From the sequence record PP925835.1: a DNA stretch of 64,000 nt; one strand, written 5' to 3'. Below are positions 14,655 to 15,206 of the stretch, piece by piece. The translations under genes were made by a program, and so were the position numbers. Source of the stretch: Escherichia phage Nernie. Numbering within the stretch: the stretch's first letter is position 1; each line of letters starts with the position of its first letter. The notes below the pieces were generated by a model that did no database searches, had not been told where the DNA came from, and saw nothing but the letters and a program-made list of their open reading frames with translations.

Positions 14655-15206
14655 TCAGGAAATATCAGATTGTGCTTTTAGATAAACAGCAAGGTCTGTA
14701 TGCCATTTTCCTAAAAGATTTTGTCCTTTCCAACAATCCTTATTTTCCACGTCACGATCCCACATCCCCATTTTGATACCATAAATAGAATCATAAGGGC
14801 TTGCCTCTACGAACTCCTTATCTGCGTAAGCGATAAGTTTATTTTTGAGATCTTCATTTTGTGTGTATTTAAGATACAAACCACGCTTGACAATCTTCTC
14901 CCGTAAAGAAGTCCAAGTAGCTTCATCGTAATCTTTAACTAATCTACCTAGTCGCTTATGATATGCCTGTTCTTTTTCTCCTGTATATCTTAGATCTCCG
15001 GTTAAAATAGAAGATGCAATGTTGTAATCATAAAACAAACATGCTTTTCTCCACATCATATATTGTTCCACACAAGTAAATTCAACAGAACTTGTAATAG
15101 AATTATTATACTTGGGAGCTAAAGGTTCAATAAAAGATGATAGATACCAGTTGCTAAATTCATCTTTTGCCGAGAAGAAGAACACATACTTATCAGTAAT
15201 CCGCAT
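14655..15206 (-). CDS. NADAR-domain (YbiA-like) protein
   Basis: FFFS..FSNW, EQYMMWRKA, W..LREKIV..GLYLKYTQN, LVEAS..D.IYGIK and NLLGK follow the DUF1768/NADAR block order. Confidence 0.65.
   Translation of the reverse strand: MRITDKYVFFFSAKDEFSNWYLSSFIEPLAPKYNNSITSSVEFTCVEQYMMWRKACLFYDYNIASSILTGDLRYTGEKEQAYHKRLGRLVKDYDEATWTSLREKIVKRGLYLKYTQNEDLKNKLIAYADKEFVEASPYDSIYGIKMGMWDRDVENKDCWKGQNLLGKWHTDLAVYLKAQSDIS

Follow-up and report, generated by a model that had tools for sequence, protein, structure and literature searches.

The window, meaning the whole stretch of DNA analysed (64,000 nucleotides of Escherichia phage Nernie, PP925835.1), comes from a Justusliebigvirus, that is, a phi92-like E. 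coli myovirus of the subfamily Stephanstirmvirinae. There are two loci of interest and both share 98-99% DNA identity with Justusliebigvirus genomes, for example Paula, Antha, phi92 and BASEL Bas60-62. A search of the whole window for RNA families and tRNAs returned none. Some records named 'Campylobacter phage' (MG065639, MG065645, MG065656, MG065689 and MG065650) are 98% identical to E. coli Justusliebigvirus or Phapecoctavirus at these loci and are probably mislabelled or contaminant. The features are as follows.

14655-15206, minus strand: NADAR protein of 183 aa, orthologue of AdfN^Bas60 (PF08719; 179/183 identity to bas60_0111)
15207-16379, minus strand: CapR-repeat/T5orf172 endonuclease-like gene (PF21817, E=3e-43; PF10544; phrog_681 'endonuclease', E=1e-87)
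33341-34015, plus strand: HAD-family hydrolase (PF00702, E=1.2e-5; phrog_14393, E=8e-119), overlapping the start of the PRTase gene
34002-34865, plus strand: ComF-like phosphoribosyltransferase, PRTase_3 (PF15610, E=1.1e-41), its stop overlapping the start of the macro gene
34858-35115, plus strand: N-terminal domain (N-domain) of the macro protein, about 86 aa, a rare small beta-barrel (SH3/Tudor/KOW-like)
35116-35574, plus strand: macrodomain of the TARG1/DarG/SCO6735 (ALC1-like) class, homologue of T4 Tk.4 (PF01661; phrog_335)
36131-37108: TerC
38887-39990: TelA
41237-42031: vWA-TerF-like protein
42104-42700: TerD

A sequence-only reading had proposed that this DNA encodes a NADAR-domain protein and, elsewhere, a macro domain within a Ter-like module, and that these are new candidate functions against ADP-ribosylation. 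Both folds are borne out by profile searches, with scores above the cut-offs. The NADAR protein matches PF08719 with E=1.5e-36 (126.6 bits, cut-off 35.1) over residues 13-168 and 146 of the 163 profile positions, and the macro protein matches PF01661 with E=7.1e-7 (29.6 bits, cut-off 22) over residues 106-217 and phrog_335 with E=6.3e-64. The Ter-like module is also present, with HAD, PRTase_3, TerC, TelA, vWA-TerF and TerD genes, and agrees with what Iyer et al. (PMC7824862) described for Ter systems of phages. For none of the three is a chance match plausible. The NADAR and macro genes are unlinked, with 20 kb between them, and are therefore two independent single-gene functions rather than one system. 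The interpretation is supported overall, but the genes are not new candidates. They are already annotated in the BASEL genomes, where GenBank names them 'putative YbiA-like N-glycosidase' and 'putative macrodomain protein', and the NADAR protein has already been characterised.

The NADAR ORF starts with ATG and occupies exactly 14655-15206; it lies on the minus strand, which the sequence-only reading had not given. In addition to PF08719, the protein matches phrog_1017 (E=1.2e-49) and the solved Phytophthora NADAR 8BAU (E=2.3e-12). It is identical to the Bas62 protein at 181 of 183 positions and to the Bas60 protein, bas60_0111, at 179 (98%). The four substitutions relative to the latter (N62S, H83Y, A96D and A178T) spare the mapped active-site positions. 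A phmmer alignment to 8BAU places E47, K54, K84, R88, Y93, W98, R102, E134 and D139 of the window protein at PnNADAR positions E43, K50, K75, R79, Y84, W89, R93, E125 and D130, which are the residues that contact ADP-ribose in the PnNADAR:ADPr structure (PMC11543638). The proposal had depended on the catalytic residues, and the ADP-ribose-binding and catalytic residues of the superfamily are all there on alignment. NADAR enzymes remove ADP-ribose from the N2 of guanine (PMC11543638).

The function of the closest characterised protein has been published. Johannesman, Carlson & LeRoux (Nat Commun 2025;16:1598; PMC11825919) named the NADAR protein of Bas60-62 AdfN^Bas60 and showed that in E. coli it suffices, with no further phage factor, to neutralise DarT1. 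Its specificity is for guanine-ADPr. It also restored plaquing of the DarTG1-sensitive phages RB69, T5 and Bas25 to full titre on DarTG1 hosts, but did not rescue T5 from DarTG2 (PMC11825919). AdfN^Bas60 and the window protein share genus, length and locus (after the CapR/T5orf172 gene and an AAA ATPase gene). From these data and the identity of the mapped active site we infer that the window NADAR is a guanine-ADP-ribose DNA glycohydrolase that would act as an anti-DarTG1 factor and behave as AdfN^Bas60 does. The earlier suggestion that NADAR counters ADP-ribosylating defence toxins is therefore correct but already known, its central element having been published for a protein of 98% identity (PMC11825919). 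Because AdfN^Bas60 was assayed by ectopic expression and not by deletion from its own phage (PMC11825919), protection of the phage by its own native gene during infection is a prediction.

Comparison with other NADAR systems is consistent with this assignment. AdfN^T4 (gp30.3) and DarG1 (the BC4488-type NADAR) share with the window protein the NADAR fold and the Glu/Lys pair (E47/K54 in the window), and probably also the chemistry of guanine de-ADP-ribosylation. They differ at the position of E125, which is Glu (E134) in the window protein, His in the T4 type and Asp in DarG1 (the D171 position). DarG1 additionally has an N-terminal extension and an adjacent darT1 in the same operon. The window protein has neither: its NADAR domain begins at residue 13, with no N-terminal extension. 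Unlike the Bas60-type AdfN, AdfN^T4 needs other phage factors (PMC11825919). PADLOC places the window protein in the candidate family PDC-M42C rather than in DarG. There is no ART gene beside the NADAR gene, whose neighbours are the endonuclease-like gene and an AAA ATPase gene. The PDC-M42C match, the lack of an extension and the lack of an ART neighbour fit the published placement of this protein among the non-DarT bacterial NADARs (PMC11825919). It is possible that the NADAR and macro proteins instead give self-immunity against a phage-encoded ADP-ribosyltransferase. About 720 phage records contain a relative of the NADAR protein, among them Phapecoctavirus (56-59% identity) and myoviruses of Staphylococcus, Listeria, Bacillus and Enterococcus.

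The GenBank names 'YbiA-like N-glycosidase' and 'GTP cyclohydrolase II' would suggest a different role, in which the NADAR protein is a YbiA-like housekeeping N-glycosidase that clears reactive intermediates of the riboflavin pathway. The Glu at the E125 position (E134) is of the YbiA type and is consistent with this. However, E. coli YbiA gives no protection against DarT1 in vivo (PMC11125620) and AdfN^Bas60 does (PMC11825919), and a search near the NADAR gene found no riboflavin genes. We consider the housekeeping role highly improbable.

The CapR/T5orf172 gene adjoins the NADAR start codon and contains three CapR-homology repeats and a T5orf172 domain. A terminator scan places a terminator at 16438-16417, and the two genes are probably co-transcribed downstream of it. 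The endonuclease-like gene is 1173 nt long here but 1404 nt in Bas60, and such differences between close relatives suggest that the anti-defence gene has a mobile or fast-changing element as its neighbour.

Two AAA+ ATPase genes of similar size were also noted, one beside the NADAR unit (16454-17581, minus strand, 375 aa) and the other immediately upstream of the HAD-PRTase-macro unit (31791-32951, plus strand, 386 aa). No protease domain was detected in either, and both carry the same annotation, 'ATPase or Zn metalloprotease' / 'FtsH-like protease'.

The macro ORF (34858-35574, plus strand) encodes 238 aa. A Shine-Dalgarno sequence, AAGGGG, precedes its ATG at 34858, which overlaps the PRTase stop codon; some records use an alternative start 18 nt upstream, giving 244 aa. 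Residues ~87-238 match the PDB macrodomains BT1257, SCO6735 and TARG1 with E=1e-15 to 6e-10. An AlphaFold2 model made with 61 homologues has pLDDT >90 over residues ~90-238, and its best Foldseek matches, scored by TM relative to the target (TMt), include TARG1 (0.90), the Thermus and Mycobacterium DarG proteins (0.80-0.81), SCO6735 (0.79) and BT1257. Thus the fold as well as the profile is that of a macro domain. The PADLOC DarG profile matches with E=2.2e-13, over positions 6-144 of 329 and so over the macrodomain part only, and scores the window protein better than Tk.4.

The active site separates the window protein from some of these relatives. It belongs to one macrodomain class with DarG2, TARG1 and PhiKZ gp104 (TMt 0.80-0.90), but these have a catalytic Lys (K80 in DarG, K84 in TARG1, K78 in PhiKZ) where the window protein has Gln163, and Asp125 of TARG1 is replaced by Ala210, so that the Lys84/Asp125 dyad of the TARG1 type is missing. 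DarG2 also has a C-terminal DarT-binding domain and an adjacent darT2, neither of which accompanies the window macro protein, where the neighbours are the PRTase gene and small ORFs. The match to SCO6735 of Streptomyces coelicolor (PDB 5E3B) has E=1.3e-15 and ~31% identity, and H106, N109, Q163 and G208 correspond to His24, Asn27, Gln85 and Gly128, the four residues on which removal of thymidine-linked ADP-ribose from DNA by SCO6735 depends (PMC9411070). All 61 homologues have N109 and Q163, and >=90% have H106 and G208. Both proteins have a long basic loop after the Gln; in the window protein this loop has many Arg and Lys residues (SRREEGKR) and resembles the mobile DNA-binding loop of SCO6735. 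The alignments therefore predict an active site of the SCO6735/Tk.4 Gln type, not of the DarG/TARG1 Lys type. Unlike the window macro gene, SCO6735 is a bacterial chromosomal gene with a DNA-damage promoter.

The macrodomain is a new member of a family whose T4 protein has the function proposed for it here. T4 Tk.4 matches phrog_335 with E=2.5e-71 and the window protein is 34% identical to it across the whole macrodomain (BLASTP, E=2e-21). The two share the motifs IAHxCNCFxTMGSG, YNLYxQY (YNLYTQY in Tk.4) and GCGxAGGxW, with Gln at the catalytic position; the window protein differs in its additional N-domain and in its HAD-PRTase-TerC setting. Tk.4 was recognised as AdfM, an anti-DarTG2 factor, through a transposon screen together with a clean deletion (HIDEN-SEQ; bioRxiv 10.1101/2025.11.20.689424), and the clean tk.4 knockout made T4 sensitive to DarTG2. 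A second AdfM, PhiKZ gp104, is a Lys-type macrodomain for which removal of T-ADPr has been demonstrated (PMC13309987). Because of the membership of the Tk.4 family, the match to the DarG fold and model, and the SCO6735/Tk.4-type active site, the best-supported reading is that the window macrodomain would be an AdfM-type thymidine-ADP-ribose DNA glycohydrolase and an anti-DarTG2 factor. Against this count the low identity to the tested T4 AdfM and the DarG-type Lys of PhiKZ gp104. Literature searches found no experiments on any Stephanstirmvirinae macrodomain.

The TARG1/DarG/SCO6735 class of macrodomains also takes protein-linked ADP-ribose and O-acetyl-ADP-ribose as substrates; with several substrates open to the class, that of the window protein cannot be read from its sequence. 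The sequence-only reading had allowed that the phage processes ADP-ribose-derived metabolites, a role that may still apply to the macrodomain but does not apply to the NADAR protein. One form of this idea has one enzyme, or both, acting mainly in the destruction of soluble ADP-ribose derivatives and not in DNA repair, the candidates being cyclic ADPR-type immune signals, ADP-ribose-1''-phosphate or Appr>p from RNA repair, and O-acetyl-ADP-ribose. Such a function has been proposed for phage Macro and NADAR proteins from comparative genomics (PMC9503650, PMC7824862). It would suit the frequent annotation of the macro family as 'phosphatase' or Poa1p-like, the Poa1p structures in the list of fold matches and the position of the GAP31 macro gene, 1.2 kb from an RNA ligase 2 gene. 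However, the macrodomain is nearer to TARG1, DarG and SCO6735 than to Poa1p (E=1e-15 against 0.07; TMt 0.79-0.90 against 0.73-0.76), the T4 protein of the same family has a phenotype specific to DarTG2 (bioRxiv 10.1101/2025.11.20.689424) and the orthologue of the NADAR protein detoxifies DarT1 in cells (PMC11825919). Destruction of soluble derivatives as the main role is therefore improbable.

The setting of the macro gene points to a further possibility. HAD, PRTase and macro follow one another as overlapping genes, and the arrangement HAD-PRTase-...-macro-...-TerC recurs in Justusliebigvirus, Phapecoctavirus ukendt, Citrobacter phage Tr1 and two IMG/VR relatives, as well as in a MAG scaffold and a 53%-identical metagenomic relative. 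Translational coupling to HAD-PRTase and a position kept across Stephanstirmvirinae could indicate a metabolic link and are counted against the AdfM reading. This would make the macro protein a Ter-module enzyme that, with HAD and PRTase (and a MazG-like protein in sister phages), makes or trims a phosphoribosyl or nucleoside-like small molecule and has no action on DNA. In support of this, the PRTase stop region contains the macro ATG, relatives conserve the gene order HAD-PRTase-(N-domain protein)-macro-TerC, the N-domain is fused either to a macrodomain or to a nucleotide pyrophosphatase and always at this locus, and the PRTase/HAD pair of Ter systems is predicted to produce a nucleoside-like signal (PMC7824862).

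The distribution of the genes argues in the other direction. Neither a macrodomain nor TerC was found within 5-6 kb of the HAD-PRTase pair in Rhizobium phage TM21B, Caulobacter CcrColossus or a Fibrobacterota MAG scaffold, and these three distant macrodomain-less pairs (loci L013, L014 and L019) have 38-45% identity. That the pair exists elsewhere with no macrodomain speaks against a metabolic link being obligatory. Phage records with a macro-family gene number 2,981 and those with the PRTase 156, a difference of about 20-fold. Most of the former lack a PRTase, GAP31 and T4 being examples, and the T4 macro protein is active against DarTG2. Across genomes, 0 to ~1 kb separates the PRTase gene from the macro gene. 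The macro domain is absent from the published list of Ter components (PMC7824862), and it does not accompany the PRTase, HAD and Ter genes wherever these are found, as a Ter component would, but is linked to them only in Stephanstirmvirinae-like genomes. On balance we regard a small-molecule enzyme of the Ter module as possible but unlikely.

Searches with the PRTase gave a narrow range of hits. In bacterial genome contigs, PRTase_3 was found in two MAG scaffolds only, both phage-like, and a search of viral contigs with the single PRTase protein returned close relatives only. In Rhizobium phage RHph_TM21B (L013, 4308-6425) a gene for a bifunctional NMN adenylyltransferase/Nudix protein lies two genes downstream of the HAD-PRTase pair, a hint that in some phages the pair of ComF-like PRTase and HAD may have a part in the metabolism of pyridine nucleotides. 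Reconstitution of NAD+ of the NARP type by HAD, PRTase and macro was rejected, as NARP3 consists of PnuC and NadR and the PRTase here is ComF-like.

The N-domain of the macro protein is rare. A family search with residues 1 to ~86 gave no match, and among phage records the domain is confined to Justusliebigvirus (53 records) and Tr1. In Tr1 it is a separate ORF, apparently truncated, between the PRTase and macro genes. The metagenomic protein P0002 (53% identity) is an N-domain-macrodomain fusion with an adjacent PRTase_3 gene. In two IMG/VR relatives and in P0124 the N-domain is fused to a MazG-like pyrophosphatase (phrog_1247, E ~2e-21/-22). P0127, from a metagenomic contig, is the N-domain alone, and P0125, from another such contig, joins it to an uncharacterised C-terminal region of 190 aa. 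The domain thus appears as a shuffled module (L011:7230-7796, L012:4024-4590, L008:3983-4411, P0124, P0125 and P0127).

The HAD-PRTase coupling and the sister N-domain-MazG fusion with its separate macrodomain have led us to consider that the fusion of N-domain and macrodomain is an unrecognised catalytic step of phage Ter-like systems and not an anti-DarT2 factor. The N-domain would then recruit nucleotide- or ADP-ribose-processing enzymes, and its target could be a common phosphoribosylated substrate, either a small molecule or a macromolecule. We think such a step rather unlikely. The novelty at this locus is modest and is confined to the domain fusion and to the constant position of the macro gene beside HAD-PRTase.

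[quoted passage not shown] Host DarT1 writes ADP-ribose on the N2 of guanine in DNA, and DarTG1 imposes a replication block. The NADAR protein, as the Justusliebigvirus AdfN, would hydrolyse the N-glycosidic bond between ADP-ribose and guanine N2 and so lift the block, acting catalytically on the product of DarT1 and not by binding the toxin. By homology, the macrodomain would most likely remove ADP-ribose from the N3 of thymidine, the mark made by DarT2, with the SH3-like N-domain as an accessory module on the enzyme. T4 provides a precedent for AdfN and AdfM in one phage (bioRxiv 10.1101/2025.11.20.689424). The phi92-like phages have a broad host range and are of interest for therapy, and if the prediction for the macrodomain is correct they would, like T4, be equipped against both branches of DarTG. 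This is relevant to the prediction of host range against DarTG-positive E. coli.

Two further observations concern the DNA downstream of the NADAR gene. Palindromes resembling Fur boxes were seen at 14100-14215 of the window and also at 1983-2001 and 2842-2860. Allowing <=3 mismatches to the E. coli Fur consensus GATAATGATAATCATTATC, there are 5 matches in comparison with 0.05 expected from shuffles. Two of the five are in the convergent intergenic region directly downstream of the NADAR gene, beside a pair of 19-nt arms (14175-14193 and 14196-14214) that are 95% complementary. These sites may reflect regulation by iron and Fur, or titration of Fur by the phage.

Within an 800-bp ORF-free stretch between two convergent genes there are three direct repeats of ~63 nt at 14235-14439 (TTGAAcTTTTCATTTTCAAAAT...AAAAACTTTAAATAA), which are 73-83% identical and spaced by 75 and 67 nt. 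An Rfam search of the repeats gave no family. The segment is annotated as 'repeat_region' in other records, and the repeats might be tandem promoter-like or regulatory units.
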